DNA of 32,000 nucleotides. It comes from Dickeya dadantii NCPPB 898 (GTDB lineage: Bacteria; Pseudomonadota; Gammaproteobacteria; Enterobacterales; Enterobacteriaceae). How positions within the stretch are numbered: position 1 is the stretch's first letter; each line of letters starts with the position of its first letter. Below the pieces are notes generated by a model. The model was not told the DNA's origin and made no database searches. It worked only from the letters and a program-made list of their open reading frames with translations. The position numbers and the translations under genes are program-made. This document shows positions 1-18,953 of this stretch, piece after piece. The DNA lies in contig NZ_CM001976.1 in assembly GCF_000406145.1 (NCBI RefSeq), forward strand, positions 3,011,337-3,043,336, written 5' to 3'.

Positions 1-1056
1 CGGATTCAGCACTTCACCACTTTTTTTCAGCACGACACTTTCCAGTAACTCACCGGGCAACTGGTGATAACGCAGTGCGTTAAAGATCGTTTTTTCAGCC
101 ACCGATACGGTATGTCTGGCTACATAATGGCGAGCCGCCGGCCGCTTACTGGCGAATGTCGACGGCAGCGACAGGAAAGGCGCGACAAAATATTCCGCAT
201 AAGGGATATCGGTGGAATAACGGATCAGCTGGCAATATAAATCACCCGGACAGCGCCGGGTCAGTTCAATCAGCCAAAAATCATCGCCATTGGCGATAAA
301 TTGCGTATGCAGCAAGCCATCACATAGCTTCAGGTCGGCGACAATACTGTTGATGCAGTCACTGACGGCATTTTTCAGCGTTTCACTCATTTGATGAGCC
401 ACACAGCTGCTATTCACCTGATAAGGGTAGACCGTGCAATATTCATCAACAAAGAACTCACAAACAATCTCGCCGTTACGAATAAACGCCGAATGGCTGT
501 GCAGCGAGCCCTGCTTGAATTCTTCTATCACCACCTGACCGCTTACCGATGCCGATGCGGCCGACTGGTAAGCCGGCAGAATATCCTGTTCGCGCTGAAC
601 CTGAGTAATACCGCGGCCACTGTAGGCATCAACCGGCTTGACCAGAATCGGATACGACAGTTGCCCCACCGATCCAATATCACGTACCGCTTTAGGAATG
701 GGCAGTCCCTTACGCTGTGCATAAGCACGAAACGCATCCTTTTTCAGCAGGATCGCCGTTGTTTCAACCGAATCGAAACCGGGCATACCCAGCGATTGCG
801 CAACCCAGGCGCCGGTTTCGTAAGAGACATCCGTCACGCCCGGCAAAATAGCCTTAATATTTTCCTTTCTGACAATGCCGAGAATGGCCTCTTTGTCCGA
901 ATAATCTTCGACAATCGACCGGGTTGCCCGGATATGACCAGGGTCACCGGGTTTGCCGCTGCACACACCAATCGCAACGCCCTGTTCCAGGCACGCTTCC
1001 AGCAGAGGCAGCGCAGAAAAACCCGCATCAAGCATTAAGGCATCTATAGTCGACAT
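1..1056 (-). CDS. ATP-grasp family ligase (partial; C-terminus lies beyond the left window edge)
   Basis: My reverse-complement translation of 1056->1 gives an uninterrupted 352-codon frame (MSTIDALMLDAGFSALPLLEACLEQGVAIGVCSGKPGDPGH...LKKSGEVLNP). It is missing from the ORF track because its stop lies outside the window. ATP-grasp-like motifs are present: YPILVKPVDAYSGRGI, GQVVIEEFKQGSLHSHSAF and FWLIELTRRCPGD. The ATG is at 1056-1054. The 215-aa plus-strand ORF at 391..1038 is its antisense shadow. Confidence 0.75.
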   Translation of the reverse strand, partial: MSTIDALMLDAGFSALPLLEACLEQGVAIGVCSGKPGDPGHIRATRSIVEDYSDKEAILGIVRKENIKAILPGVTDVSYETGAWVAQSLGMPGFDSVETTAILLKKDAFRAYAQRKGLPIPKAVRDIGSVGQLSYPILVKPVDAYSGRGITQVQREQDILPAYQSAASASVSGQVVIEEFKQGSLHSHSAFIRNGEIVCEFFVDEYCTVYPYQVNSSCVAHQMSETLKNAVSDCINSIVADLKLCDGLLHTQFIANGDDFWLIELTRRCPGDLYCQLIRYSTDIPYAEYFVAPFLSLPSTFASKRPAARHYVARHTVSVAEKTIFNALRYHQLPGELLESVVLKKSGEVLNP

Positions 1057-1083
1057 ATCCATTCTCTGTTACCAATATTTTCT

Positions 1084-1138
1084 CAGGCTTCCCGCTACAA
1101 CGGGGAGCGCGCACGCCCCTTAGGGCGAAGCAAGCCTG
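1084..1138 (-). other. GC-rich multi-stem intercistronic element (REP-like or mRNA-structure element)
   Basis: It lies in the 86-bp gap between the aminotransferase stop (1143) and the ATP-grasp start (1056). The outer inverted repeat is CAGGCTT (1084-1090) / AAGCCTG (1132-1138). It encloses two inner hairpins: CCCG-ctacaa-CGGG (1091-1104) and CGCCC-ctta-GGGCG (1114-1127). Confidence 0.4.
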
Positions 1139-1142
1139 TCAC

Positions 1143-2270
1143 TTAACGCCCGTTTTCACTCAACGTGCGCCCAATAATCTCGATGATGCGATCCTGATCG
1201 CCGCTTTCCAGACCTGGATAAATGGGCAGACACAGCACAGCGTTGGCGATGTCGGTCGCCACCGGTAAATTCTCGGCGCCCGCGCTGCCGAGACCACGGT
1301 ACATCGGAAAACTGCTGATCAGCGGGTAGAAATACCGGCGTGACATGATGCCGTGCTCTTTCAGAGCGTCATAAAGTTTCTCGCGCACATCGAACGAGTA
1401 ATCATTAACAAAAAGCGGGAAGTAGGCATAATTCCAGTCGATGGAATCCGGCACGCTCAGCGTCCTGATGCTATTAATCTGAGCCAACCCATCACGGTAG
1501 TAGCGATAAATACGTTTTCTGTCTTCCAGCGCCTGATCGATATAATTCAGTTGCAACAGGCCAAACGCCGCCTGCACTTCGTTCATTTTGCCGTTAATAC
1601 CGGGAGCGACCACAGTGGTTTCATCCGCAAAGCCGAAGTTTTTCAGATAATCGATCCGTTTCTTCATTTTTGCGTCGGGGCAAATAATGGCGCCGCCTTC
1701 AATGGTGTTGAACACCTTGGTCGCGTGGAAACTCAGAATTGAGAGATCGCCATAATTCAGAATGCTGTCGCCATCCTTTTTCACGCCAAAAGAGTGTGCG
1801 GCGTCATAAATCACCTTCAGGCCGTAAACATCCGCAATATTCTGGATTCGATCGACATCGCAAGGAATACCATAACAGTGGACAGGCAGAATAGCGGACG
1901 TGAGCGGCGTAATCGCTTCTTCAATCTTTTTAGGATCCAGATTACAGGTAACCGGATCGATATCGACAAAAACTGGCTTGAGGTTATTCCACAATAACGA
2001 GTGAGAGGTCGCCACAAACGAATAAGGCGTGGTGATGACTTCGCCGGTAATACGCAACGCCTGCAGCGCCGTCAGCAGCGCCAGCGTGCCGTTCGTGAAC
2101 AGACACAGATGTTTAACGCCCAGATATTCAGCCAGAGCGTGCTCAAGTTGCTGGTGAAAAGGCCCACCGTTCGTCAGATATTTGTTATCCCATATCTTTT
2201 CCAGATAGGGCGTAAATTCATCAAGCGGAGGCAGTAAAGGGCTCGTTACGTAGATGTTCTTACTCATCAT
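1143..2270 (-). CDS. DegT/DnrJ/EryC1/StrS-family PLP-dependent NDP-sugar aminotransferase (375 aa)
   Basis: The ORF 1143..2312 translation is typical of sugar aminotransferases: MSKNIYVTSPLLPPLDEF...NGGPFHQQLE...CLFTNGTLALLTALQAL...DAAHSFG...SILSFHATKVFNTIEGGAI (HATK should hold the PLP-lysine). I trimmed the start to the ATGATG at 2270, which follows AAGGA at 7 nt. The upstream 14 codons (MLLYVWRHKRKDRS) look non-native. Confidence 0.85.
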   Translation of the reverse strand: MMSKNIYVTSPLLPPLDEFTPYLEKIWDNKYLTNGGPFHQQLEHALAEYLGVKHLCLFTNGTLALLTALQALRITGEVITTPYSFVATSHSLLWNNLKPVFVDIDPVTCNLDPKKIEEAITPLTSAILPVHCYGIPCDVDRIQNIADVYGLKVIYDAAHSFGVKKDGDSILNYGDLSILSFHATKVFNTIEGGAIICPDAKMKKRIDYLKNFGFADETTVVAPGINGKMNEVQAAFGLLQLNYIDQALEDRKRIYRYYRDGLAQINSIRTLSVPDSIDWNYAYFPLFVNDYSFDVREKLYDALKEHGIMSRRYFYPLISSFPMYRGLGSAGAENLPVATDIANAVLCLPIYPGLESGDQDRIIEIIGRTLSENGR

Positions 2271-2395
2271 TGACCTGTCCTTGCGCTTATGTCGCCATAC
2301 ATAAAGCAGCATTGTCTGTTTATTATCGCTATTACCGCTGCCGCCACCGCCTTGTCATCCAGGTGAAAAGCAGCCCCTTCGGGTTTTACGTAAGC

Positions 2396-5300
2396 TTATG
2401 ATTCATTTTCCCAGTCAATGCTGAATGTTCTGGGCTCTTTTCCTTCGCAATAAATCTGCCACGCGTTGCGTATGGCGCGTTCGAAATAAATAGACGGCGA
2501 TAAAACGGAATTCATTCTGGCGGCGATGCGTCCACGAATTCCGGCGCGCACGTCGCTGAGTTTTTCCAGTGATTGACGCCAGTACAGCGCCTTTTGTACA
2601 AACTCGTCTTCTTCCGTCGCGATAAAGTCATCCAACCCCAGAATACGCATGGTGACGCTGCCTTGACGTGAAGCGATGGACTCGCCTTCACGAGTCAGCA
2701 CCGGTACGCCCATCCAGGCGGCGTGACTCACCGTGGTCCCACCGGTATACGGATAGGTATCCAGCAGCAGATCTACTTCGCGGTGCATTCCCAGATATTC
2801 TTTCAAGCCGGTCCGCATGCGGAAAGACAGTTGCTCTTCCTTCACCCCGAACTCGACCAACCGGTCACGGAAGTAGTCGATGGTTTCCTGACCCGTCATG
2901 TACCCCATGATTAGCCGGGAATCCGGCATCGCCGTCAGAACCTTCGCCCACAGGGCCAGGGTTTCGTCAGTAATTTTCTGCGGACGATTGAAACTGGCAA
3001 ACGTCAAATAACCGTTTTTCAATGCCGGCAGTTCATTCACTTCCGGGCTATCTTTGACCGGCTCAAAATATTTCACCGAAGGCAAATAAATGATTTTTTC
3101 CGTCAGATACGGATCGAGCGCACCGCCCTGGATGTAATGCAAATCAAGCAGGATGTAATCAACGCTCTTCATACCGGTGGTTCCGGGATAACCGATCCAG
3201 GTCATCTGGATCGGGGCGGGTTTCAGCGCCAGCGCCGGCAACCGGTTATAAGCGGTATGTCCGGACAGATCGATCAGAATGTCGATTTCGTCCTTATTGA
3301 TGAGCGTCGCCAATTCGAGGTCGCCCATCTTGTCGACATCATGCCAGCCAGCCGCGGTCTGTTTTAGGCTCTCGGCCTTTTCATCGTTACGTTGAAAACT
3401 TGAGTAGGCGTAAAGCGAGAACGCGCCTCGATCAAGCGAATTCCAGATAGGTTCAAGGAAATTCGTCACCGGATGGTTGCCAAAGTCGCCGGAAACGAAA
3501 CCAATGCGTAGCGGGCGTTGAGCGGCTTTATCAAGGGAGTAGGCAAACTGGCAGTGATGGCGCTCGGCCGCTTCTTCCACGCGCTTACCGAATAACAGGT
3601 GTTCCTGAAACAGCGCCTGCGGCGTCACATTGACATCGTGAGACAGCCCCAGCAGCAGGTTGCTGTACAGATGAAACGCCTGGGGCATCAGCTCAATGGT
3701 TTTACGATGGTACTGAATGGCGTCTTTTCGCCCCAGGTTATGGCAAACCATCCCCATATGGCTGATAAAATTGGGGTTTTCCGGCTCAATCTGCAGAGCC
3801 TTCTCCATACATTTAAACGCTGAATCCAGGTTATGGGTGAGATTCAACAAAATTGCCAGCGTGTCCCACGCCAGCCCTTTTTGCTTATCACAACGCAAGA
3901 CTTTTCTGGTCAGCGCCATGCCCTGATGCAGTTCGTTCTTTTTCCAGAAGCACACCGCCAGATCAATATAAAAATCCCAGTTGAAAGGCATCAGCGCAAT
4001 TGCTCTGGTAATGATGCTCAGCGCGCCATCAAAATCGCCGGTACGGACATAGGTATTCACGAAGGGATACCAGACCCACAGGTTGTCGGGATAGGTACTG
4101 ATAATCTCTTCCGCTTTTGTTCTGACATCGGCAAACTGCCCCAGTGTGGTTAGCCGATCAATCTCTTCGTACACCTTCCGGTTGAGCGTGTTTCTATCCT
4201 GCGGCTTACTCTTTTTATGCGCCGACGATTTTTCCGGTTCAACAAAGCCGCCCGCACTGGTTTCACTGATGTACATCACCAGCGACTGAATATAAACAGC
4301 AACCTGCCCGGCATCGGCCTCTACGATCGCTTCCTGCAAGTAGTCTCGCCACGCGCGCGGCGTTCCCCATATCACGCCTTTATTACGCAGCGCCCAAAGC
4401 TGGCTGTAAAACGCCTTATCCTTGTTCAGAGTCGATGATGACAGCTGTTGCAGGAACCGCCGCTCGTCACTATCAAGCGACACCGGTTCATGCCAGAAAT
4501 TGAATGCCAGATCGGTCGTGGCAATACCGGGCAACCCAGTCAGCGTCTTATGTCGACTGTTCCGGTAAGTACAATTCCCCATCCGCGTGTAAATGCCATC
4601 GATCCCTTTCACAAACAGGTTCTTTAACGCATCCAGCACATTCTGCCGATGATTCTCAGCTTCCTTTTCCGGCAGCAGGGTATTAAAGACCAATTGATCC
4701 AGAGTCAAACTGGCCGGCCAGGCTTCCCCCAACGCATCCAGAATACTTAATACCACCGGGTTTTCCGTGCTGATGGTCTCACCGTTACCGGATCGGTGGG
4801 CATTCAGCGTAGCGCCATTGCTTGCCGTAACACGTTGAAAATTACCCGCCCAGTTGAAATCCGCCAGCCGGGAAAGCTCGGGGGCCGGCAGCACCGCCTC
4901 CGCCCTCGCCTGTGGAACCAGCATACTGAACCGCTGGGAGCGGTTAACGGCGAAATCGAGGTATTGCTGGCGCAGATAGGTGGTATTTTCAGGGCAAATC
5001 GTCTCGTGCAAGCGCGAAACCTGATCGCCGTAATGCCCCGCCAGTTCTGTGTAGGCGCGAACATCGCCGACATAGGCAAAGCCGGTTTGGGTAATCTGTG
5101 AATAGAAATCAACGAAATAACAAGGCTGGTTCAGCCCCTGCAAATAATGCAGCGCAAAATCCACATCGGACTGTTTTTCCGCTTGTTCAATAAAGGTTTT
5201 CAGCGCCGCATTCTGGGGATTATCCGGGGATGTTCCCAACGACAGATAGGTCAGCATCGCGCGGGCGCTGGTTTGCGCCGTCTTTTCATCATTAGCGAGG

Positions 5301-5848
5301 CTGCTGTGAAGCTGAATAGCGTCCCGCAGGATTTCACCGGTCTTCCACCCTGGATAGGTGTTGTAGCAATAGCAGACGATGCCTTCCGCGGTCAGGTGCT
5401 CACTACAGAATCGCAGCAGCGCTTCCCGCGTCTCGCCACCGATAAGACTGAACAGGCCGTGGATAATGATGTAATCGAATTTTCCAGGATCGCAAGCCAG
5501 CAGAGATTCGAGGTCCAGGGCAAATAACGCGATATTGTCCAGTTCCAACTGCTTTATCAGAGCACTGCCTTTTTCAATTTGCTCCGCATCAAGATCGACC
5601 CCGACAGACTGCGACTGTGGATTAGCCAGCGCAAAAGGCAGCAAATTGCCGCCATCCTTGCACCCAATCTCAAGCACGCGTGCATTTTCCGGCGCAACCG
5701 ACTTGATGCCATAAAGATGTGCGGTAGCTTGCAGATGGAAAGGCGCGGTGTAAGGAACGGGAGGGGCCATCGAACTCAATGGAATTTTACCAGTATCGTC
5801 ACCCAGGTCGTCATTATTCGCTAAAGGTTGTGTATCTGGCATGGTCAC
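2396..5848 (-). CDS. 1150-aa multidomain protein: N-terminal class I SAM-methyltransferase, an extension resembling the methyltransferase regulatory domain, TPR-like repeats, and a C-terminal GT41 (O-GlcNAc transferase/SPINDLY-like) glycosyltransferase; putative flagellin-modifying enzyme
   Basis: SAM motif I VLEIGCKDGG is at aa 58-67 (nt 5648-5677), with DYIIIHGLF at about aa 125. CYNTYPGW is at about aa 161-168, as in MT-regulatory-domain proteins. A helical repeat region spans about aa 560-735 (e.g. GDFDGALSIITRAIALMP, LDSAFKCMEKALQIEPENP). The C-terminus matches bacterial SPINDLY-type GT41 proteins: PLRIGFVSGDFGNHPVTNFLEPIW...DILIDLSGHT...VDLLLDTYPYTGGTTVSHAAWMGVPVLT. The GTG start at 5848 lies 8 nt after AGGA (AAGGAAA); an in-frame ATG is at 5842. 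Confidence 0.8.
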   Translation of the reverse strand: MTMPDTQPLANNDDLGDDTGKIPLSSMAPPVPYTAPFHLQATAHLYGIKSVAPENARVLEIGCKDGGNLLPFALANPQSQSVGVDLDAEQIEKGSALIKQLELDNIALFALDLESLLACDPGKFDYIIIHGLFSLIGGETREALLRFCSEHLTAEGIVCYCYNTYPGWKTGEILRDAIQLHSSLANDEKTAQTSARAMLTYLSLGTSPDNPQNAALKTFIEQAEKQSDVDFALHYLQGLNQPCYFVDFYSQITQTGFAYVGDVRAYTELAGHYGDQVSRLHETICPENTTYLRQQYLDFAVNRSQRFSMLVPQARAEAVLPAPELSRLADFNWAGNFQRVTASNGATLNAHRSGNGETISTENPVVLSILDALGEAWPASLTLDQLVFNTLLPEKEAENHRQNVLDALKNLFVKGIDGIYTRMGNCTYRNSRHKTLTGLPGIATTDLAFNFWHEPVSLDSDERRFLQQLSSSTLNKDKAFYSQLWALRNKGVIWGTPRAWRDYLQEAIVEADAGQVAVYIQSLVMYISETSAGGFVEPEKSSAHKKSKPQDRNTLNRKVYEEIDRLTTLGQFADVRTKAEEIISTYPDNLWVWYPFVNTYVRTGDFDGALSIITRAIALMPFNWDFYIDLAVCFWKKNELHQGMALTRKVLRCDKQKGLAWDTLAILLNLTHNLDSAFKCMEKALQIEPENPNFISHMGMVCHNLGRKDAIQYHRKTIELMPQAFHLYSNLLLGLSHDVNVTPQALFQEHLLFGKRVEEAAERHHCQFAYSLDKAAQRPLRIGFVSGDFGNHPVTNFLEPIWNSLDRGAFSLYAYSSFQRNDEKAESLKQTAAGWHDVDKMGDLELATLINKDEIDILIDLSGHTAYNRLPALALKPAPIQMTWIGYPGTTGMKSVDYILLDLHYIQGGALDPYLTEKIIYLPSVKYFEPVKDSPEVNELPALKNGYLTFASFNRPQKITDETLALWAKVLTAMPDSRLIMGYMTGQETIDYFRDRLVEFGVKEEQLSFRMRTGLKEYLGMHREVDLLLDTYPYTGGTTVSHAAWMGVPVLTREGESIASRQGSVTMRILGLDDFIATEEDEFVQKALYWRQSLEKLSDVRAGIRGRIAARMNSVLSPSIYFERAIRNAWQIYCEGKEPRTFSIDWENES

Positions 5849-6010: not shown

Positions 6011-6046
6011 AAATAAAAAACCAACCCCGAAGGGTTGGCTTTTTTA
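6011..6046 (-). terminator. Rho-independent terminator of fliC (bidirectional in form)
   Basis: The minus-strand RNA reads GCCAACCC-UUCG-GGGUUGG-UUUUUUAUUUU. This is a 7-bp GC-rich stem (6021-6027 / 6032-6038) with a C(UUCG)G tetraloop and a U-tract, 30 nt after the fliC stop. An A-run upstream and a T-run downstream make it symmetric. Confidence 0.85.
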
Positions 6047-6075: not shown

Positions 6076-6918
6076 TTACTGCAGCAGTTTCAGAACAGTC
6101 TGCGGTACCTGGTTAGCCTGAGCCAGTACAGAAGTACCAGCCTGCTGCAGAATCTGCGCACGGCTCATGTTGGATACTTCGGTCGCGTAATCAGCATCCT
6201 GGATACGGCTACGTGCGTTGCTCAGGTTGTTGATGGTGTTGCTCAGGTTGTCAATGGTAGACTGGAAGCGGTTCAGCGTCGCACCGATGTTCGCTTTAGC
6301 GGTGTTGATGGTCTGCAGAGCAGTATCAATCGCAGAAACCAGTGCAGTAGCGCCTGCAGCTGTAGACACGTCGGTATTGGTAGTGGTGATACCCAGGCCA
6401 CCAGAAGTAGCGTTGATCAGTGCAGAGCTACCCACAGAGATGGCGTCGTTAGCAGTGGTGCCTGCGCCAACCTGAATGTTGAAGCCGGTAGCGGTAACAG
6501 TACCGTCCAGCAGCGCTTTGCCGTTGAAGTTTGCGCTGGCGGCAACACGGTTGATTTCATCAACACGACGGTTAATTTCAGTCTGGATTGCAGTACGGTC
6601 GTTAGTACCGTTAGTGTCGTTCGCTGCCTGTACGGCCAGCTCACGGATACGCTGCAGGTTGTCGTTGATGGTATCCAGGTTACCTTCAGCGGTCTGAACC
6701 AGAGACACACCGTCGTTAGCGTTTTTAGAAGCCTGAGTCAGACCTTTGATCTGAGCGGTCATACCGTTAACGATACCAGAACCCGCTGCGTTGTCTTTGG
6801 CGCTGTTGATAGCCAGGCCAGAGGACAGACGTTCGATAGCAGTCTGCAGGGAAGATTGAGATTTGTTCAGGTTGGTCTGGGCCAACAGCGACATACTGTT
6901 AGTATTAATGACTGCCAT
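6076..6918 (-). CDS. fliC: Flagellin (280 aa, short form with a minimal variable domain)
   Basis: The N-terminus MAVINTNSMSLLAQTNLNKSQSSLQTAIERLSSGL.INSAKD.AAG and the C-terminus RSRIQDADYATEVSNMSRAQILQQAGTSVLAQANQVPQTVLKLLQ are canonical flagellin D0/D1 sequence. An AAGGAA SD precedes the ATG, and a sigma-28 promoter lies upstream. Confidence 0.97.
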   Translation of the reverse strand: MAVINTNSMSLLAQTNLNKSQSSLQTAIERLSSGLAINSAKDNAAGSGIVNGMTAQIKGLTQASKNANDGVSLVQTAEGNLDTINDNLQRIRELAVQAANDTNGTNDRTAIQTEINRRVDEINRVAASANFNGKALLDGTVTATGFNIQVGAGTTANDAISVGSSALINATSGGLGITTTNTDVSTAAGATALVSAIDTALQTINTAKANIGATLNRFQSTIDNLSNTINNLSNARSRIQDADYATEVSNMSRAQILQQAGTSVLAQANQVPQTVLKLLQ

Positions 6919-6987: not shown

Positions 6988-7014
6988 GTATCGGCCGGTG
7001 TAAAACAACCTTTA
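6988..7014 (-). promoter_or_regulatory. Sigma-28 (FliA) class 3 promoter of fliC
   Basis: The minus strand reads TAAAGGTT-N11-GCCGATAC. The consensus is TAAAGTTT-N11-GCCGATAA, so each half matches 7/8. It lies about 70 nt upstream of the fliC ATG. Confidence 0.85.
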
Positions 7015-7497: not shown

Positions 7498-7524
7498 TAA
7501 ACTTTTCGTATACAGTGCCGATAA
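7498..7524 (+). promoter_or_regulatory. Sigma-28 (FliA) promoter of fliDST
   Basis: The plus strand reads TAAACTTT-N11-GCCGATAA (7/8 and 8/8 to consensus). The -10 element ends 38 nt before the fliD ATG. Confidence 0.88.
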
Positions 7525-7561: not shown

Positions 7562-9016
7562 ATGGCTACGACGGTTAGCAGTAACTCAGACATCATTTCA
7601 TCGATAGGTATGAACTTGGGTACGTCAGTCAGTGGTTCTTCACTTGACTTGAGTTCACTGATAAGCAAGCTGCAAACCGTTGAAGAGCAGCGGCTGACCC
7701 CCTATAACAATAAGCAGACCTCGCTGAGCAAGCAGGCAACCGCCTATACCACCGTTGAATCGGCGATGAAGAACTTGCAGAGTGCTACCACGACTCTGCA
7801 AAACATGAAGACCATCACGTCAACGGCCGTGACCAGCACCAATACCGCATTCAGCGCCAGCACCGACAGTACTGCGGTAGCGGGTTCCTACAGTGTTTTC
7901 GTCAATAATATCGCGCAGGCGCAGTCGCAAATCTCCGGTAATTTTAGCAGCGCATCAACCGCGTTGGTATCAGGCGGGACTTCCAGCACCAGCAGCACGA
8001 TCACGATTACGCAATCCAGCCAGTCTACGCCGTTGACGATTACGCTAACCGATGACAAAACGTCATTAAACGATATCCGTGATGCTATTAACAACGCCGG
8101 CGGTAGCGTCAGCGCCACTATCCTTAACGACGGCACCAACAACAAACTGATTCTGACGGCAAAAGACACTGGCACGAAATCCGCGATGAGCATCTCAGTC
8201 AGTGGTTCGCTTTCCAGCTCACTGGGCAGTTTCACCGAGCAGGTTGCAGCCAAAGATGCCTCATTCACGATCAACGGCGTGTCAGTAACCAGCCAGAGCA
8301 ATACGGTGACTACCGCCATCAGCGGTGTGACGTTGAACCTTAAAGCGGCCTCCACTACCGGCTCAAACGCGGAAAGCCTGACGATTGCATCGGATATCAC
8401 CAATACTGAAAAAGCAGTTCAGAATTGGGTGACCGCCTATAACAATGTGCTGGACGTCATCAAGACCCAGACCAATTACACTGCGCCGACATCAACCGAG
8501 CAGTCTGACGGCACCCAGTCATCCAGCAATGGTGCGCTGGTCAGTGACAGTACCATTCGTGCAATTAAGCGACAGTTACAGGGCCTGATGAGCAACTTTC
8601 AGGGTAGCGGCTCACTGAACACGATGGCCGATCTGGGAATTACCCAAGATCCGACCAATGACGGTAAACTGACTGTCGACAACACCAAACTGGAAAGCAC
8701 GTTGAAAAGCAGCGCCAGTAGCGTGGCGCAATTCTTTGTTGGCAACGGCACCACCACTGGATTTGCCACTCAAGCGGGAAATTACCTGACCCAGACAGTG
8801 GATTCGGCAGATGGTCTGATCAAATCGGCCCAGGCGAGTATCAAAACCAGCCAGGCTAGCGTAACTAAACAGCTCGCCAGCATCCAGGACAGTATTGATT
8901 CCACGATGGCGCGCTACAAGACCCAGTTTACTAATCTCAATACTCTGCTGTCCAAACTGTCGTCAACCAGTTCTTACCTGACACAACAGTTTAATAAAAC
9001 CAGCAGTTCCAGCTAA
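7562..9016 (+). CDS. fliD: Flagellar filament capping protein (HAP2), 484 aa
   Basis: It sits divergent from fliC and upstream of fliS/fliT. The N-terminus (LDLSSLISKLQTVEEQRLTPYNNKQTSLSKQATAYTTVESAMKNLQSA) and C-terminus (ARYKTQFTNLNTLLSKLSSTSSYLTQQF) match the FliD pattern, and the S/T-rich middle is typical. Confidence 0.93.
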   Translation: MATTVSSNSDIISSIGMNLGTSVSGSSLDLSSLISKLQTVEEQRLTPYNNKQTSLSKQATAYTTVESAMKNLQSATTTLQNMKTITSTAVTSTNTAFSASTDSTAVAGSYSVFVNNIAQAQSQISGNFSSASTALVSGGTSSTSSTITITQSSQSTPLTITLTDDKTSLNDIRDAINNAGGSVSATILNDGTNNKLILTAKDTGTKSAMSISVSGSLSSSLGSFTEQVAAKDASFTINGVSVTSQSNTVTTAISGVTLNLKAASTTGSNAESLTIASDITNTEKAVQNWVTAYNNVLDVIKTQTNYTAPTSTEQSDGTQSSSNGALVSDSTIRAIKRQLQGLMSNFQGSGSLNTMADLGITQDPTNDGKLTVDNTKLESTLKSSASSVAQFFVGNGTTTGFATQAGNYLTQTVDSADGLIKSAQASIKTSQASVTKQLASIQDSIDSTMARYKTQFTNLNTLLSKLSSTSSYLTQQFNKTSSSS

Positions 9017-12443: not shown

Positions 12444-13432
12444 GTCTGACAGGTACAGAAAAGAGCGCCGTTTTATTGATGACTATCGGCGAAGACCGTG
12501 CGGCAGAAGTTTTTACGCACCTTTCAACCCGCGAAGTGCAGCACCTCAGTACTGCGATGGCCAACATGAAACAGGTCTCTCAGTCTGAGTTGCTGGAAGT
12601 TTTGCGCGAGTTTGATATTGAGGCCGAGCAGTATGCGGCGTTGGGTGTGAACGCCGGCGAATACCTTCGTTCTGTCCTGGTCAAAGCATTGGGTGAAGAG
12701 CGTGCCTCCAGCCTGCTGGAAGATATCCTTGAAAGCAAGGAAACCTCTACCGGTATGGAAACGCTCAACTTTATGGAGCCGCAAAGCGCCGCCGACCTTA
12801 TCCGCGACGAACACCCGCAGATTATCGCCACCATCCTGGTGCACCTCAAACGCGCACAGGCGGCGGATATTCTGGCCCACTTCGACGAACGCATGCGTAA
12901 TGACGTTATGCTGCGTATCGCCACGTTCGGCGGGGTGCAACCGTCAGCTCTGGCGGAACTGACCGAAGTGCTTAACGGGCTGCTGGACGGTCAAAACCTC
13001 AAGCGCAGCAAGATGGGTGGTGTTCGTACTGCGGCAGAGATTATCAACCTGATGAAAACGCAGCACGAAGAAGCGGTTATCGATGCCGTGCGCGAATTCG
13101 ACGGCGAGTTGGCACAGAAAATTATCGACGAAATGTTCCTGTTCGAAAACCTGGTGGAAGTGGACGATCGCAGTATCCAGCGTCTGCTGCAGGAAGTGGA
13201 ATCCGAGTCTCTGCTGATCGCGCTGAAAGGCGCCGAACAGCCGCTGCGCGAGAAGTTCCTGCGCAACATGTCGCAACGTGCGGCGGAAATCTTGCGCGAC
13301 GATCTGGCGACCCGTGGTCCGGTACGTATGTCCCAGGTGGAAAACGAACAGAAAGCCATTTTGCTCATTGTACGTCGCCTGGCAGACAGCGGCGAAATGA
13401 TTATCGGTGGTGGCGATGACGCGTTCGTCTAA
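12440..13432 (+). CDS. fliG: Flagellar motor switch protein FliG (330 aa)
   Basis: [53 protein letters not shown] and [22 protein letters not shown] are near-identical in pattern to E. coli FliG. Confidence 0.98.
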
Positions 13433-14162
13433 CTCTTCCAGCAATCTTGACTGGCAGCCATGGAAACTGGATGACCTGTCCTCCCCTACGCCTGCTGTCG
13501 CGGACGTGGTGACGCCGGCATCGTCTTTTCCGGCTTCGCCGTCGGCGCAACCTGGGGACAACGACTTTTTCGGTATGTCCGACTTTCAGCAGCCGGAGGA
13601 TGACCTGGCAACCCTGCGCGAGCAGGTGCTGCAACAGGCGCGGGAGAACGGGTTCGCCGAAGGCAAGCAACAGGGTTACGCCGCCGGTTATCAGGACGGA
13701 CTTCAGGCTGGCACGCAGCAGGGTTTACAGGATGCCGCTCAGCAGCAGCAGCCGGTGATTGCCCAGATGCAACAAATGGTCAATGAATTCCAGCAAACGC
13801 TGGACGCTCTGGACAGCGTCATTGTCTCACGCCTGATGCAACTGGCCTTAACCGCCGCCAAGCAGGTCATTGGCCAATCACCGGTTTGTGACGGTACGGC
13901 GCTAATGGGGCAAATACAGCAGTTGATCCAGCAGGAGCCGATGTTCAGCGGCAAGCCGCAGTTGCGCGTACACCCATCGGATCTGGATCGGGTGGAACAG
14001 CACCTCGGCCCTACTCTCAGCCTGCATGGCTGGCGGTTGTTGGCGGATAACCAGTTGCACCCGGGCGGCTGCAAGGTCAGCGCCGAAGAAGGGGATCTGG
14101 ACTCCAGCATTGCCACGCGCTGGCATGAACTTTGCCGACTGGCAGCACCGGGAGAACTCTGA
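13416..14162 (+). CDS. fliH: Flagellar export apparatus protein FliH (248 aa)
   Basis: WQPWKLDDL near the N-terminus and the C-terminal two thirds ([32 protein letters not shown]...[67 protein letters not shown]) match Salmonella/E. coli FliH. The ATG at 13416 overlaps the fliG 3' end. The ORF-track start at 13407 is a GTG three codons upstream and remains possible. Confidence 0.9.
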
Positions 14163-15532
14163 TGACTGTGCGTCTTTCCCGTTGGCTCTCTTCTATCGAT
14201 GCGTTTGAAAAGCGTATCGCCAATACGCCTGCGATACGCCGTTACGGACGGCTGACGCGTGCGACGGGATTGGTGCTTGAAGCGACCGGCCTGCACATGC
14301 CGCTGGGTTCAACCTGCCTGATTGAACGCCAGACCGGCAATCAGGTCGACGAAGTAGAAAGCGAAGTCGTCGGTTTTAACGGCCAGAAACTGTTCCTGAT
14401 GCCGCTCGAAGAAGTCGAGGGGATCATCCCGGGAGCGAGAGTCTATGAACGCGTCGGCCTTTCCGGCAGCAGCCAGGGCAAGCAACTACCGCTAGGTCCG
14501 GCATTGCTGGGCCGCGTGCTGGATGGCAGCGCCAAGCCGCTGGACGGCTTTCCGGCGCCTGATACCGGCTACACCGCGCCACTGGTGACCGCGCCGTTCA
14601 ACCCGCTTCAGCGTACGCCGATTGAACACGTTCTGGATGTCGGCGTGCGTGCCATTAACGCATTGCTGACGGTGGGCCGCGGTCAACGTATGGGGCTGTT
14701 CGCCGGTTCCGGCGTTGGTAAAAGTGTGCTGCTCGGAATGATGGCGCGCTATACTCAAGCCGATGTGATCGTAGTCGGCCTGATCGGCGAGCGTGGGCGA
14801 GAAGTCAAAGACTTCATCGAAAATATTCTCGGCACAGAGGGGCTTGCCCGCTCTGTGGTGATCGCCGCTCCGGCGGATGTCTCTCCCCTGCTGCGTATGC
14901 AGGGCGCGGCTTATGCTACGCGCATCGCAGAAGATTTCCGCGACCGTGGTCATCATGTATTGCTGATTATGGATTCGCTGACGCGTTATGCGATGGCTCA
15001 ACGTGAAATCGCACTGGCGATTGGCGAACCGCCCGCAACCAAAGGTTATCCGCCTTCGGTTTTTGCTAAATTACCCGCTCTGGTAGAGCGTGCAGGCAAC
15101 GGTATTTCCGGTGGCGGTTCTATCACGGCGTTTTATACGGTGTTGACCGAAGGCGACGACCAGCAGGACCCAATTGCCGATTCGGCTCGCGCCATTCTGG
15201 ACGGTCATATTGTGCTGTCCCGCCAGTTGGCGGAGTCCGGGCACTATCCGGCCATTGATATCGAAGCGTCTATTAGCCGTGCGATGACGGCGTTAATAGA
15301 TGAAAACCATTATTCTGCGGTAAGGCAATTCAAGCAGTCGCTATCCAGCTATCAGCGCAACCGCGATCTGATTAATGTCGGCGCTTATGCCGCCGGTAGC
15401 GATCCGCTGCTGGATCGGGCAATACAACTTTATCCGCAGATGCAACACTTTTTGCAGCAGGGAATGTTTGAGCGAAGCTCATTTGAGGAAGCCTGTCAGG
15501 CACTGGATAACATTTTCCCGTATAATCGGTAG
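14162..15532 (+). CDS. fliI: Flagellum-specific type III export ATPase FliI (456 aa)
   Basis: The Walker A motif [15 protein letters not shown] and Walker B region [19 protein letters not shown] are present, and the sequence is colinear with FliI. The start MTVRLSRWL at 14162 overlaps the fliH stop (TGATG). The ORF-track start at 14132 lies inside fliH. Confidence 0.97.
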
Positions 15533-15540
15533 GAGGACGA

Positions 15541-15981
15541 ATGAGGACTCAGTCTACTTTCGTCATGCTGCGTGATTTGGCCCAAAAAGAGGTTGATGCC
15601 GCGACAACGCATCTGGGTCAGATACAAAAAGCCTATTTGCAGGCTGAACAGCAACTTAATGCGTTGTTAGGTTACCATGATGATTATCGCCAGCGGCTCA
15701 ATGACTCAATGACCGAAGGCATGGCCAATACCTCCTGGCAAAATTATCAGCAATTTATTTTGACTCTGGAAAAAGCGATTGAGCAGCACCAGCATCAGTT
15801 ATTAAATTGGTCTTCTCGTTTGAATCAGGCGATGAAAGCCTGGCAGGAAAAGCAACAGCGACTGAATGCATTTAGTACCTTACAACAGCGCGAACAGACT
15901 AAAATGCTGGCGCATGAAAATCGCCTGGAACAAAAGCGGATGGATGAATTCGCCCAACGCGCATCAATGAGGAAAACATAA
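15541..15981 (+). CDS. fliJ: Flagellar export protein FliJ (146 aa)
   Basis: An AGGAGG SD lies 5 nt upstream. The coiled-coil Q-rich sequence (LRDLAQKEVDAATTHLGQ...YHDDYRQRL), the size and the position after fliI all fit FliJ. Confidence 0.92.
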   Translation: MRTQSTFVMLRDLAQKEVDAATTHLGQIQKAYLQAEQQLNALLGYHDDYRQRLNDSMTEGMANTSWQNYQQFILTLEKAIEQHQHQLLNWSSRLNQAMKAWQEKQQRLNAFSTLQQREQTKMLAHENRLEQKRMDEFAQRASMRKT

Positions 15982-15983
15982 TT

Positions 15984-17309
15984 ATGAACTTGCCAGCAAT
16001 GCCGATCACCACTACGACTGATGCAAGCACAACTGCGCCTCAGGGGAATTCTTTACTTGCGCTGCTGGGCAAAGACCAGCTACCGGAAAATTTTGTTCAG
16101 TTGCTCTCGCAGAAACTGTCATCGGCACAGTCCGCCAAAAAGACCATTATCAGCGATCAGGAAAGCGCCGATCTCAAAGACGCACTGGCAAAAAGCGGCA
16201 TTGAAGCAAACAGTGACGAATTGAATGCCATCCTGGGCGCCTTGACTAAAGGCACCTTGACGCTGGCTGACTTGCAATCAGGCAATTCTCTTGAATCGCT
16301 GCTGGCCAAGGCTCAGAAAAAAGTCAGTGCAAAGGACGAGAAAACGACTGATAACGATGCGCTGGCTATGCAGGCGTTGTTTGCCATGATTCCGGTACAA
16401 ACTACGGCTCAGACAAAAGCGGTAACGGAAGGTACGGCATCCAACTCGTCTTTATCCGACGCGTTGAGCGAGTTGAAAAACGGCAAGACCAGCAACAGCG
16501 TTTTGAGCTCGTTGCTGAACTCGGCGAAAACCGACGACGCATCGTCACAAGATAAATTTACGCTGAATGGATCCGCAACGGCGGATAGTACGGCCGCATC
16601 ATCCCTGGCTGCCGCAGGTACCTCTGCCGCCGCCAAAAATAACGGGCTGCAGGTAGAGGCTGACCAAGCCAAAGATAGCTCCCTGCTGGCATCCCGTAAG
16701 GAAGACAGCGCCAGTAATCCGATAGCGGCATCCGCGCCGGCCGATGCCGGCGCCAACTCGTCATTGCACACGCTGTCGTCACTGTTCGCCAACAATGCCA
16801 CGCCAACGCAACCTGCCGCCCAGCACGTAACCAGCCAGATCAATGCGCCGTTGGGTACGCAACAGTGGAATGATGCGCTGGGTCAGCAGATCGTGATGTT
16901 TAGCCGTAACGGTCAGCAGACTGCAGAACTGAAACTTCACCCGGAAGAGTTGGGCTCACTGCATATCATGCTGAAAATCGAAGACAATCAGGCGCAGATT
17001 CACCTGGTTTCCGGTAGCAGCCAGGTGCGCTCCGCACTGGAGTCCGCACTCCCCCACTTGCGCAGCGCGATGGCCGAGAGCGGCATCAACCTGGGACAAA
17101 GCAGCGTAGGGTCGGATGCCAGCAGTTGGCAGCAGTCACAGCAGCAAGTGGCAAGCAACGCCAATGGTAACGGCGGCGGCAACGCCTCGTCTTATCAGCA
17201 GCAATTCGGCCAATCTGAGCATAACGCCGCCGAAGTTGAACCACTGGCGGTACCGGCACGGCTACAGTCAATGGCAACGGGTATTAATGGCGTTGATATC
17301 TTTGCCTAA
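15984..17309 (+). CDS. fliK: Flagellar hook-length control protein FliK (441 aa)
   Basis: The N-terminal and central regions are Ala/Ser/Gln-rich and look disordered. The conserved C-terminal T3S4-type domain is present (QQWNDALGQQIVMFSRNGQQTAELKLHPEELGSLHIMLKIEDNQAQIHLVS...VRSALESALPHLRSAMAESGINLG). It sits between fliJ and fliL. Confidence 0.9.
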   Translation: MNLPAMPITTTTDASTTAPQGNSLLALLGKDQLPENFVQLLSQKLSSAQSAKKTIISDQESADLKDALAKSGIEANSDELNAILGALTKGTLTLADLQSGNSLESLLAKAQKKVSAKDEKTTDNDALAMQALFAMIPVQTTAQTKAVTEGTASNSSLSDALSELKNGKTSNSVLSSLLNSAKTDDASSQDKFTLNGSATADSTAASSLAAAGTSAAAKNNGLQVEADQAKDSSLLASRKEDSASNPIAASAPADAGANSSLHTLSSLFANNATPTQPAAQHVTSQINAPLGTQQWNDALGQQIVMFSRNGQQTAELKLHPEELGSLHIMLKIEDNQAQIHLVSGSSQVRSALESALPHLRSAMAESGINLGQSSVGSDASSWQQSQQQVASNANGNGGGNASSYQQQFGQSEHNAAEVEPLAVPARLQSMATGINGVDIFA

Positions 17310-17374
17310 TGAAGAAGTTAACGCTTTTTTTATTGTTTATTCATTGTATTGAAGCGGTGAATAGGCGGGATAAT

Positions 17375-17386
17375 CGTGATATCACG
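17375..17386. promoter_or_regulatory. 12-bp perfect palindrome CGTGATATCACG in the fliL upstream region (candidate operator or FlhDC-box core)
   Basis: It is flanked by imperfectly symmetric A/T-rich arms (GGGATAAT ... CATTTATC) and lies about 60 nt upstream of the fliL start. The fliL operon is class 2 in E. coli/Salmonella. The match to the published FlhD4C2 consensus is only loose. Confidence 0.35.
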
Positions 17387-17442
17387 CATTTATCTAATAG
17401 CTGCCTTTGCCATTAGATACTGATAAATAACAGGATATATCA

Positions 17443-17931
17443 TTGGCTACGTCTAATAAGAAAGCCCAGTCAGGCGGTAATAAGAGGTCCCTCTGGCTGA
17501 TACTCTTGATTGTTATCGCCCTGGCAGCCACTGCCGCAGCGGGTGCTGGCTGGTGGTTATTGAGTCATAAAAAAACCGAAATGGCAGCCAGCGAGCCGCC
17601 TCCGCCGCCTGCGCCGGTATTTATGCCGTTGGATACATTCACCGTTAACCTGTTATCTGCGGATAACAACCCGGATCGGGTGCTGTATGTGGGGATCACC
17701 CTGCGACTGCCGGATGAAGCGACTCGTGCGCGCCTGACCAACTATCTGCCGGAAATTCGCAGTCGTTTGATTATGCTGTTTTCTCGTCAGAGCTCGTCTG
17801 TTCTGGCAACGGAACAAGGCAAGCAAAAACTGGTTGAAGATATCAAGCAGGTATTAAGCCCACCGCTGGTTCCTGGACAACCTAACCAGGTAGTCAGCGA
17901 TGTCCTGTTCACTGCTTTCATTTTGCGGTAA
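17443..17931 (+). CDS. fliL: Flagellar basal-body-associated protein FliL (162 aa), TTG start
   Basis: [16 protein letters not shown] (TM helix), [13 protein letters not shown]...[39 protein letters not shown] and [12 protein letters not shown] are colinear with E. coli FliL. The start codon is TTG at 17443, preceded by AGGA at 7 nt. Confidence 0.9.
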
Positions 17932-17936
17932 TCATT

Positions 17937-18953
17937 ATGGGTGACAGCATTCTTTCACAGGCAGAGATTGACGCTCTGCTAAACGGTGACAGTAGCGATA
18001 ATAGCGCTGATGCCAGCAACGCTGCTTCGCAGAAAGACGGGGATGTCAAACCCTACGATCCCAATACACAACGGCGCGTCATTCGTGAACGTCTGCAGGC
18101 GCTGGAGATCATCAACGAACGTTTTGCACGTCAGTTCCGCATGGGGCTGTTCAACCTGCTTCGTCGTAGCCCGGATATTACCGTCGGGGCCATCAAGATT
18201 CAGCCGTATCATGAGTTTGCGCGTAACCTGCCGGTTCCGACCAACCTCAACCTGATACATCTGAAGCCTCTGCGCGGCACGGCGCTGTTTGTGTTCTCCC
18301 CCAGCCTGGTCTTCATTGCCGTTGACAACCTGTTCGGCGGCGACGGTCGTTTCCCCACCAAGGTTGAAGGTCGTGAGTTTACGCATACCGAGCAGCGTGT
18401 TGTGCGCCGGATGCTTAAACTGGCGCTCGAATCCTACAGTGATGCCTGGAATGCGATTTACAAGCTAGATGTGGAATACGTGCGTTCGGAAATGCAGGTA
18501 AAATTCACCAACATCACTACATCGCCCAACGATATCGTGGTGACAACCCCTTTCCATCTGGAAATCGGGACTCTGACCGGCGAATTCAGTATCTGTATTC
18601 CCTTCTCCATGATTGAGCCTTTACGCGAATTGCTGGCCAACCCGCCGTTGGAGAACTCGCAGCAGGAAGATCAGCACTGGCGTGAAACACTGGCAAAACA
18701 GGTACAGCACTCGGAGCTGGAGCTGGTTGCCAACTTTGTTGATATACCGGTTCGACTGTCAAAGGTTTTGAAACTCAAACCCGGAGATATTTTGCCGATT
18801 GATAAACCTGAACGCCTGGTGGCTCATGTTGATGGTGTGCCAGTATTGACCTGTCAATACGGTACGTTAGATGGCCAATATGCCTTGCGTGTTGAACACT
18901 TGATTAATCCAATTTTAAATTCTCTGAATGACGAGGAACCGCTCAATGAGTGA
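17937..18953 (+). CDS. fliM: Flagellar motor switch protein FliM (338 aa)
   Basis: MGDSILSQAEIDALLNG (the CheY-P binding N-terminus), RVIRERLQALEIINERFARQFRMGLFNLLRR and LIHLKPLRG are canonical FliM sequence. Confidence 0.97.
   Translation: MGDSILSQAEIDALLNGDSSDNSADASNAASQKDGDVKPYDPNTQRRVIRERLQALEIINERFARQFRMGLFNLLRRSPDITVGAIKIQPYHEFARNLPVPTNLNLIHLKPLRGTALFVFSPSLVFIAVDNLFGGDGRFPTKVEGREFTHTEQRVVRRMLKLALESYSDAWNAIYKLDVEYVRSEMQVKFTNITTSPNDIVVTTPFHLEIGTLTGEFSICIPFSMIEPLRELLANPPLENSQQEDQHWRETLAKQVQHSELELVANFVDIPVRLSKVLKLKPGDILPIDKPERLVAHVDGVPVLTCQYGTLDGQYALRVEHLINPILNSLNDEEPLNE

Follow-up and report, generated by a model that had tools for sequence, protein, structure and literature searches.

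The fliC-proximal half of a flagellin glycosylation island in Dickeya dadantii NCPPB 898

Genes and features downstream of fliC

We examined a 32,000-nucleotide stretch of Dickeya dadantii NCPPB 898 (contig NZ_CM001976.1, positions 3,011,337 to 3,043,336; hereafter the window), at the left end of which three genes follow the flagellin gene fliC and correspond to part of a flagellin glycosylation island known from this species. They encode a 1150-residue protein with methyltransferase, TPR, and GT41 glycosyltransferase regions, a DegT-type aminotransferase, and an ATP-grasp ligase, and all of them, as well as fliC, were on the minus strand. An initial annotation, made from the DNA letters alone, had described these genes together with the fliC terminator, and scans for open reading frames (ORFs), Pfam domains, and terminators recovered every one of these features at the same coordinates. 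In window coordinates, the features of the locus were:

1–1062, minus strand: ATP-grasp ligase gene, its 5′ 354 codons, orthologue of Dda3937_03422, cut by the left edge of the window
1143–2270, minus strand: DegT/DnrJ/EryC1/StrS aminotransferase gene, 375 residues, orthologue of Dda3937_03423
2396–5848, minus strand: gene for the 1150-residue protein (protein-lysine methyltransferase (PKMT)-like domain, TPR, and GT41), orthologue of Dda3937_03424 and the 'GT41-2' of De Maayer and Cowan
2429–3580, minus strand: GT41 catalytic domain of that protein, residues 757–1140 (PF13844, 145 bits)
3629–4150, minus strand: TPR repeats, approximately residues 567–740 (Pfam TPR_19/17/14/2)
4577–5782, minus strand: N-terminal domain, residues 23–424, a class I S-adenosylmethionine (AdoMet) methyltransferase plus MethyTransf_Reg, homologous to PKMT1/2
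4613–4617, minus strand: TTT run at codons 411–412 of the same gene, with one T fewer in the strain 3937 record (position 7656 of that locus, L012)
6012–6017: insertion point of the IS200-type element of the strain 3937 record (L012 5550–6255), which is absent from the window
6015–6044, minus strand: intrinsic terminator of fliC, a 13-bp stem plus T-run, between fliC and the island
6076–6918, minus strand: fliC, 280-residue flagellin (Pfam Flagellin_N and Flagellin_C)
6988–7014, minus strand: sigma-28 (FliA)-type promoter of fliC, TAAAGGTT-N11-GCCGATAC, with 14 of 16 consensus matches in our own scan
7498–7524, plus strand: sigma-28 promoter of fliD, with 15 of 16 consensus matches

The 1150-residue protein had Pfam matches to Methyltransf_12 (PF08242, 2e-14), Methyltransf_25/31, MethyTransf_Reg (PF10119, 4e-15, 56.8 bits against a cut-off of 25.5), TPR repeats, and Glyco_transf_41 (2.6e-42, the cut-off being 25 bits). 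Among solved structures, its N-terminal domain matched Rickettsia PKMT1/2 (5dnk, 9e-40; 5doo, 1.5e-38), and the alignment of residues 23–424 to PKMT1 spanned approximately 385 residues, including both the AdoMet-binding and the dimerization (MethyTransf_Reg) domains. The motif VLEIGCKDGG was located at residues 58–67, while GVD85 and H130 aligned with D102 and H146 of RpPKMT1, which have been named as AdoMet-contacting (PMC11784438). Motif I, the acidic residue of GVD, FDYIIIHG, and QQYLDF..R..R were conserved across 20 homologues (27–81% identity); Asp or Glu occupied the acidic position in 20/20, and some of the distant homologues had Arg or Thr in place of His. Because these motifs are conserved in homologues down to 27% identity, the PKMT-like domain is very probably active; it may act on any of the seven FliC lysines, or on the glycan at an amine or hydroxyl. 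The homology of residues 23–424 to Rickettsia PKMT1/2, as judged from these alignments, is a point absent from the papers cited here. A relationship of the methyltransferase domain to FliB was also considered, and was rejected for want of sequence similarity; models of FliB were absent from the Pfam and NCBIfam matches (E ≤ 0.001–0.01) for the island proteins. The analogy to Salmonella fliB that the initial annotation had drawn is therefore apt for position beside fliC and fails for the domain, which is not FliB-like and is homologous to PKMT1/2 instead.

Further along the protein, the TPR region aligned to the TPR of SPINDLY, O-GlcNAc transferase (OGT), and consensus TPR proteins, and is presumed by analogy to be the flagellin-binding module. 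The GT41 domain matched the structures of SPINDLY (7y4i, 7e-73), Thermobaculum OGT (5djs, 6e-66), human OGT, and Xanthomonas XcOGT. PF13844 was above its gathering score and the TPR repeats were N-terminal to the catalytic domain, placing the protein in GT41; this TPR-plus-GT41 layout is the one seen in cytoplasmic protein O-glycosyltransferases. Homologues carry the database name 'O-linked N-acetylglucosamine transferase'; the predicted gene content of the locus argues for a donor other than UDP-GlcNAc.

The aminotransferase started with MMSKN at 2270, a longer ORF to 2312 having been set aside because six related contigs call the shorter, 375-residue gene. It carried the pyridoxal phosphate-lysine motif SFHATK (Lys185) and matched PF01041 at 4.9e-101 (339 bits against a cut-off of 19.8). 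Its best NCBIfam model was TIGR04427, the DesI-type dTDP-4-dehydro-6-deoxyglucose aminotransferase (289 bits against a cut-off of 650), and its best solved structure was DesI (2po3, 7e-65), 57 bits ahead of the runner-up, with perosamine synthetase and an annotated ArnB-type aminotransferase coming next. These three enzymes are 4-aminotransferases. The 3-aminotransferases QdtB, NtdA, and WbpE scored lower (1e-39 to 1e-44). By these matches the enzyme appears 'DesI-like', and is not a proven member of that group.

The ATP-grasp ORF, starting at 1062 or 1056, exited the window after 352–354 codons and had a full length of 393–395 residues in related contigs. Pfam scores for the window fragment were below gathering (ATP-grasp_4, 23.6 against 27; Dala_Dala_lig_C, 23.4 against 24; CPSase_L_D2, 17.1 against 19.8), and the full-length D. 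undicola orthologue reached 22.7 against 19.8 for CPSase_L_D2. NCBIfam PurT was matched at 9e-12 over approximately 290 residues, and PDB matches were to five ATP-grasp enzymes, including cyanophycin synthetase, carbamoyl-phosphate synthetase, an L-amino-acid ligase, and PurT; judged by such matches, the fold assignment is safe. In all, the domains proposed in the initial annotation for the first two proteins (methyltransferase, TPR, and GT41; DegT) were confirmed by Pfam, and the ATP-grasp call was supported by NCBIfam PurT and PDB, with Pfam just under gathering.

The complete island and published evidence for flagellin glycosylation

The first 12.3 kb of the window had 99.2–99.5% nucleotide identity to D. 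dadantii contigs, and identity to CP002038.1, the genome of D. dadantii 3937 (PMC6637903), was 99.3%. FliC, DegT, and the 352 residues of the ATP-grasp protein encoded inside the window were 100% identical to strain 3937, the last also to D. dadantii contig L013. For the 1150-residue protein, identity to the corresponding two frames of strain 3937 was 99.0–99.5%. The exact DegT sequence was present on 23 contigs, CP002038.1 and 22 others. As fliA is outside the window, the extent of the island was read from five contigs that were 99.2–99.5% identical over the first 12.3 kb. The island consisted of six genes, Dda3937_03424 to 03419, between fliC and fliA, and the order past the ATP-grasp gene was a GFO/IDH/MocA oxidoreductase (GFO, 377 residues), an FkbM methyltransferase (361 residues), a 475-residue protein, then fliA and fliZ. 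In the related contigs, the full island, taken as everything between the stop codon of fliC and the start codon of fliA, measured 10,518 bp at 50.1% GC, which agrees with the 10,548 bp and 50% in Table S2 of De Maayer and Cowan. The expectation that the island continues leftward was thus borne out, by six genes reaching fliA in contigs of 99.5% identity, while the expected contents were not: no nucleotidyltransferase or 4,6-dehydratase gene was in the complete six-gene island, the genes found being the GFO/IDH/MocA, FkbM, and 475-residue proteins instead. Neither did the island contain Wzx, Wzy, or polyprenol-linked transferase genes.

This island has been catalogued before. Among 2,000 Enterobacteriaceae genomes screened by De Maayer and Cowan (2016), flagellin glycosylation islands between fliC and fliA were found in 307, including 44/44 Dickeya (PMC4875605). 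Their Table S2 gives 11,258 bp, seven proteins, and a GC of 50% versus 56.3% for D. dadantii 3937, and 10,548 bp with six proteins for other D. dadantii strains; components include 'GT41-2' (Dickeya, 1149 residues, AdoMet domain) and the ATP-grasp protein 'CarB2' (Dickeya and Lonsdalea), and a methyltransferase domain is on nearly all GT41 enzymes of these islands (PMC4875605). The locus studied here belongs to the Dickeya island: its genes are orthologues of those in strain 3937, they follow fliC in matching order, and the insert spans fliC to fliA.

Of the more distal genes, that for the GFO protein overlapped the ATP-grasp ORF by 4 nt, and Dda3937_03422 and 03421 are given as one operon (Royet et al. 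2019; PMC6637903). The 475-residue protein (Dda3937_03419) was called a second sugar transferase in that study, in which a disaccharide built by two transferases was inferred (PMC6637903). It had no Pfam, NCBIfam, or PDB sequence match, and its identity between D. dadantii (L013 14907–16334) and D. undicola was 68%, as compared with 84–93% for its neighbors.

The substrate of the island, FliC, had N- and C-terminal helical regions only, without D2/D3 domains, and contained 25 Ser, 32 Thr, and seven Lys (positions 19, 41, 58, 65, 134, 208, and 277), with a predicted mass of 28,701 Da, or 28,833 Da if Met is kept. Royet et al. (2019) worked on these same six genes, Dda3937_03424 to 03419, and used matrix-assisted laser desorption/ionization (MALDI) to measure FliC: the wild type gave 32,170 Da, and mutants of 03419 and 03424 gave 31,034 and 28,890 Da, respectively (PMC6637903). 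The island adds a glycan of approximately 3.3 kDa, at several sites, to the 28.7-kDa FliC; none of it is left when the gene for the 1150-residue protein is disrupted, and the outer third or so goes with the loss of 03419 (PMC6637903). Sugar masses were also sought from the three MALDI values, and nothing firm was obtained: 1136/7 = 162.3 fits a hexose, and the mass of the first sugar then varies with the number of sites and the baseline. Motility was unchanged in the mutants and virulence was reduced, with a median celery maceration in a mutant that fell from 109 to 40, and in transposon insertion sequencing (Tn-seq) in chicory the ATP-grasp gene 03422 was the island's only significant hit (log2 fold change −4.85, q 0.02; PMC6637903). 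Ichinose et al. (2013), cited in PMC12310338 and PMC7575072, likewise reported glycosylation of D. dadantii flagellin. The proposal that the locus glycosylates flagellin is accordingly one for which experiments exist in D. dadantii 3937, on proteins that are identical or 99% identical, and the anticipated excess of flagellin mass that depends on these genes is the one published (32,170, 31,034, and 28,890 Da). The statement in the initial annotation that no experimental characterization was known was wrong, given PMC6637903 as well as PMC4875605 and, through PMC12310338, Ichinose et al. (2013). What was found in the window is no new system; it correctly rediscovers an island that had been catalogued and verified by experiment.

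Strain 3937 differed from the window at two points. A 706-bp IS200-type element encoding a Y1 transposase (152 residues) was located directly after the T-run of the fliC terminator, and the deletion of one T splits the gene for the 1150-residue protein into a methyltransferase ORF and a 738-residue TPR-GT41 ORF, the new TGA overlapping the GTG of the latter (TTGTGAAA). In the window and five other contigs, the ORF was intact. The split could be a real, natural one or a sequencing error; if the frameshift is real, wild-type 3937 glycosylates flagellin without fusion of the two modules.

This division bears on the published knockout of 03424. The primers 19732+/− of Royet et al. bracket exactly the 5′ (methyltransferase) ORF of strain 3937, and the only AgeI site of the fragment is at codon ~170; in the mutant, A4277, the cassette therefore sits at that site (window ~5340, L012 6931) and not in the GT41 part. 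Either polarity or the gene really being one ORF would account for the loss of glycosylation in A4277.

The remaining ORFs of the window that were tested, or were called in near-identical loci, were flagellar (fliD/S/T/E/F/I/K/R and flgL/K/J/I/H/E), and those between, within the runs fliF to fliR and flgL to flgC, were assigned by size and order alone, such that the description of the island as the only non-core DNA in the window is a fair one. Composition was not distinctive within the window (51.8% GC at 1–5848 versus 52.6% for the remainder). The fliC and fliD promoters were both within the 640-bp divergent intergenic region, and a sigma-28 scan upstream of the gene for the 1150-residue protein returned no site of at least 12/16, only fliC and fliD having one. 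This absence before the island genes fits their reported separate promoters. A perfect TATAAT was present approximately 95 nt upstream of the GTG start of the same gene, at which the sigma-70 scan called no full promoter.

Related flagellar loci and the proposed route to the glycan

Full-length homologues of the 1150-residue protein (37–84% identity) were taken from five other species, and in 5/5 they were inside flagellar loci, as expected if homologues belong at flagellar loci rather than elsewhere. D. undicola had the same island without FkbM. In Serratia marcescens, two flagellins and two paralogues of the large protein were accompanied by DegT and two hexapeptide acyltransferases, then fliA, and in Phytobacter the order was fliC, the large protein, a sulfatase, an ATPgrasp_Ter protein, then fliA, with no DegT. 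Rahnella bruchi had the large protein and DegT directly after fliR. A Pantoea metagenome-assembled genome (MAG) encoded the large protein, ATPgrasp_Ter, FkbM, a WbqC-like protein, and DegT, upstream of which were a methyl-accepting chemotaxis protein (MCP) chemoreceptor gene and ORFs that match Rahnella fliI–fliR in size and order only. Among the 120 homologues listed, the family of the 1150-residue protein extended to Pectobacteriaceae, Cronobacter, Citrobacter koseri, Mangrovibacter, and Alcaligenaceae, and no Pseudomonas sequence was present.

The partner of DegT was swapped between loci, yet was always of an amine-acylating type: ATP-grasp, a PglD-like or hexapeptide acyltransferase, or a WbqC-like protein. 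Such enzymes were found at:

Serratia (L002), 13459–16040: PglD-like protein and a second hexapeptide acyltransferase
Pantoea MAG (L004), 13348–18533: ATPgrasp_Ter and WbqC-like protein
Phytobacter (L003), 14168–16719: ATPgrasp_Ter and sulfatase, without DegT

This arrangement resembles a modular toolkit in which the methyltransferase-TPR-GT41 enzyme is the constant part, and because the DegT-adjacent enzyme is always of an amine-acylating type, N-acylation of the new amine is supported. Additionally, DegT orthologues (65–75% identity) were paired with the GT41 protein in the Rahnella (L007) and Serratia (L002) loci, which were without an oxidoreductase, dehydratase, or nucleotidyltransferase, so the keto sugar there must be a housekeeping metabolite; the same argument was made for rmlB by De Maayer and Cowan (PMC4875605). 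The two-gene Rahnella locus also argues that GT41 uses the DegT product. In Serratia marcescens strain 1001295B (L002 3882–13423), the two flagellin genes were in tandem and the two divergent paralogues had 34% and 43% identity to the query, which suggests one transferase per flagellin; De Maayer and Cowan recorded no glycosylation island in 111 Serratia genomes (PMC4875605).

We consider the window genes, with a probability of about 90%, to be the fliC-proximal half of the D. dadantii flagellin glycosylation island Dda3937_03424–03419, between fliC and fliA, working as follows. Housekeeping enzymes would supply a nucleoside diphosphate (NDP)-4-keto-6-deoxyhexose, most likely dTDP-4-keto-6-deoxy-D-glucose from RmlA/RmlB or RffH/RffG of the enterobacterial common antigen (ECA) and O-antigen pathways, which is the obvious housekeeping keto sugar in Enterobacterales. 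A DesI/VioA-like DegT enzyme would then make the 4-amino-4,6-dideoxy sugar, the ATP-grasp enzyme would ligate a carboxylic or amino acid to the sugar amine at the expense of ATP, the translationally coupled GFO oxidoreductase may alter the oxidation state of either the sugar or its acyl group, and the FkbM methyltransferase would O-methylate the sugar. Before flagellin is exported, it would be bound in the cytoplasm by the TPR module of the 1150-residue protein, with the GT41 domain transferring the sugar to Ser/Thr in the short central region of FliC, the 475-residue protein adding a second sugar, and the N-terminal PKMT-like domain putatively adding methyl groups to flagellin lysines or to an amine or hydroxyl of the glycan. 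The probable glycan consists of two sugars, one of them an N-acylated, O-methylated 4-amino-4,6-dideoxyhexose. The N-acylated or aminoacylated, possibly methylated amino sugar put forward in the initial annotation is plausible and is backed by comparative evidence.

Several points weigh against this interpretation. The published 03424 insertion lies in the methyltransferase-coding part of the gene and alone assigns no transferase activity to GT41. The published mass of the 'unmodified' FliC exceeds the prediction by 57 Da if Met is kept and by 189 Da if it is removed, an excess that may be calibration error; residual lysine methylation by the PKMT-like domain was rejected as its cause, since the A4277 insertion sits in that domain. 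No chemical structure of a Dickeya or Pectobacterium flagellin glycan was found in the literature searched, and we therefore infer the steps from sugar supply to O-methylation. DegT is below every NCBIfam equivalog cut-off, and its regiochemistry and nucleotide carrier are tentative, as is the assignment of a transferase to the DegT-derived sugar. Finally, a GFO dehydrogenase beside DegT also marks de novo keto-sugar pathways (WbpB/WbpE, GnnA/GnnB, and NtdC/NtdA).

The logic of those pathways would have the amino sugar made inside the island: the GFO enzyme would oxidize a ring hydroxyl, such as C3 of UDP-GlcNAc, of a UDP- or phospho-sugar and DegT would transaminate the ketone, giving a 3-amino sugar rather than a 4-amino-4,6-dideoxy one. 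The presence of an oxidoreductase and the absence of a 4,6-dehydratase and nucleotidyltransferase would fit, as would the weak matches of the GFO protein to models of UDP-GlcNAc 3-dehydrogenase (1.8e-17) and glycoside 3-dehydrogenase, the alignment of DegT to WbpE, NtdA, and QdtB, and UDP-GlcNAc as the canonical GT41 donor scaffold. We nevertheless regard this route as unlikely. DegT was clearly closest to DesI, with 4-aminotransferases as its top three structures, and its orthologues work with GT41 in loci that have no GFO gene; moreover, the GFO gene was coupled to the ATP-grasp gene and not to DegT, and the best family for its product was inositol 2-dehydrogenase, far under the cut-off. In another arrangement, GT41 would put plain GlcNAc on FliC, as the database names and the homology of the domain to OGT would have it, and the product of DegT, ATP-grasp, GFO, and FkbM would be the second sugar, added by the 475-residue protein (03419) in line with the two-transferase disaccharide of Royet et al. 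However, the Rahnella and Serratia loci have GT41 and DegT with no 475-residue homologue, leaving the DegT product there without another transferase, and 2144 Da is no integer multiple of 203 Da, a weak point given the accuracy of MALDI. SPINDLY, the best structural relative, is a protein O-fucosyltransferase using GDP-fucose, so GT41 donors are not restricted to UDP-GlcNAc and a deoxyhexose donor has GT41 precedent. Plain GlcNAc on FliC thus seems doubtful to us. That the genes serve lipopolysaccharide (LPS), ECA, or capsule sugar synthesis and are beside fliC by chance is hardly credible: O-antigen clusters often include members of the DegT, GFO, and FkbM families, but all full-length homologues examined were in flagellar loci, the island is without the Wzx, Wzy, and polyprenol-linked transferase genes noted above, and the published dependence of the FliC mass shift on two island genes refutes it.

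A further, tentative reading, which we hold at well below even odds, is that the 1150-residue protein is a dual flagellin decorator. Its PKMT-family domain would place N-methyl groups on lysines of flagellin, or on the amino sugar once attached, at its free amine; GT41 would O-glycosylate Ser/Thr, and an ATP-grasp ligase, rather than the usual acyl-CoA or acyl carrier protein (ACP)-dependent transferases, would install the acyl or aminoacyl group of the glycan. Such sugar chemistry is not known to have been described for any flagellin, and the split gene in the 3937 record would then be a natural test of the need for fusion. More generally, glycans on the flagellin of plant pathogens influence virulence and may influence recognition by host immunity, and this island is a documented D. 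dadantii fitness factor in chicory and celery. The residual interest is in the chemistry of the glycan, the substrate of the ATP-grasp enzyme (the sole Tn-seq hit of the island), and the target of the PKMT-like domain, which nearly all flagellar GT41 enzymes of enterobacteria carry.

Comparison with known systems

The cluster of D. dadantii 3937 (PMC6637903) is from the same species and has the same locus and gene order as the window, differing in that 3937 has the IS200-type element and the split gene and the window has neither. The islands of De Maayer and Cowan (PMC4875605) are likewise between fliC and fliA, with a GC approximately 6 points under that of the genome, an AdoMet methyltransferase domain on the GT41 protein, and CarB2 in Dickeya and Lonsdalea; their survey made no link of this domain to protein-lysine methyltransferases, and there was otherwise no material difference.

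Rickettsia PKMT1/PKMT2 and Acinetobacter KmtA, which are outer-membrane protein lysine methyltransferases, share the fold, the PF10119 domain, and the AdoMet-contacting Asp/His with the Dickeya domain. Unlike these enzymes, the Dickeya domain is fused to TPR and GT41 and is encoded in a flagellar locus, and FliC, its candidate substrate, has only seven lysines. Salmonella FliB occupies the same slot beside fliC, modifies flagellin, and leaves swimming unaffected, but had no sequence relation to the island proteins in Pfam or NCBIfam. Members of the GT41 family (SPINDLY, OGT, and bacterial OGT-like proteins) have TPR before a GT-B domain that acts on protein Ser/Thr in the cytoplasm, as in the Dickeya protein, which differs from SPINDLY and OGT by the extra N-terminal methyltransferase domain. 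Caulobacter FlmG transfers pseudaminic acid. This enzyme, a TPR-plus-transferase flagellin glycosyltransferase (PMC7591256), is likened to the Dickeya protein by architecture only.

The viosamine island of Pseudomonas syringae pv. tabaci (VioA, VioS, ACP, VioB, VioR, VioM, and VioT, with Fgt1/Fgt2; PMC3927599) is a step-by-step functional parallel. There, dTDP-viosamine is produced by an aminotransferase and N-acylated at its 4-amine, the acyl group is then the target of a reductase, O-methylation follows, and VioT (1,173 residues) completes the process (PMC3927599). Acylation in P. syringae uses ACP and ketoacyl-ACP synthase III (KAS III) with an acetyltransferase-type enzyme, in contrast to the ATP-grasp ligase of Dickeya, and the reductase is of the short-chain dehydrogenase/reductase (SDR) type as opposed to the GFO type. 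VioT, which is likened to the Dickeya protein by description only, adds modified viosamine (mVio) to rhamnose and not to protein. The GFO and FkbM proteins of Dickeya would parallel VioR and VioM, respectively, and the modified-viosamine glycan of P. syringae is needed for virulence and not for motility (PMC3927599).

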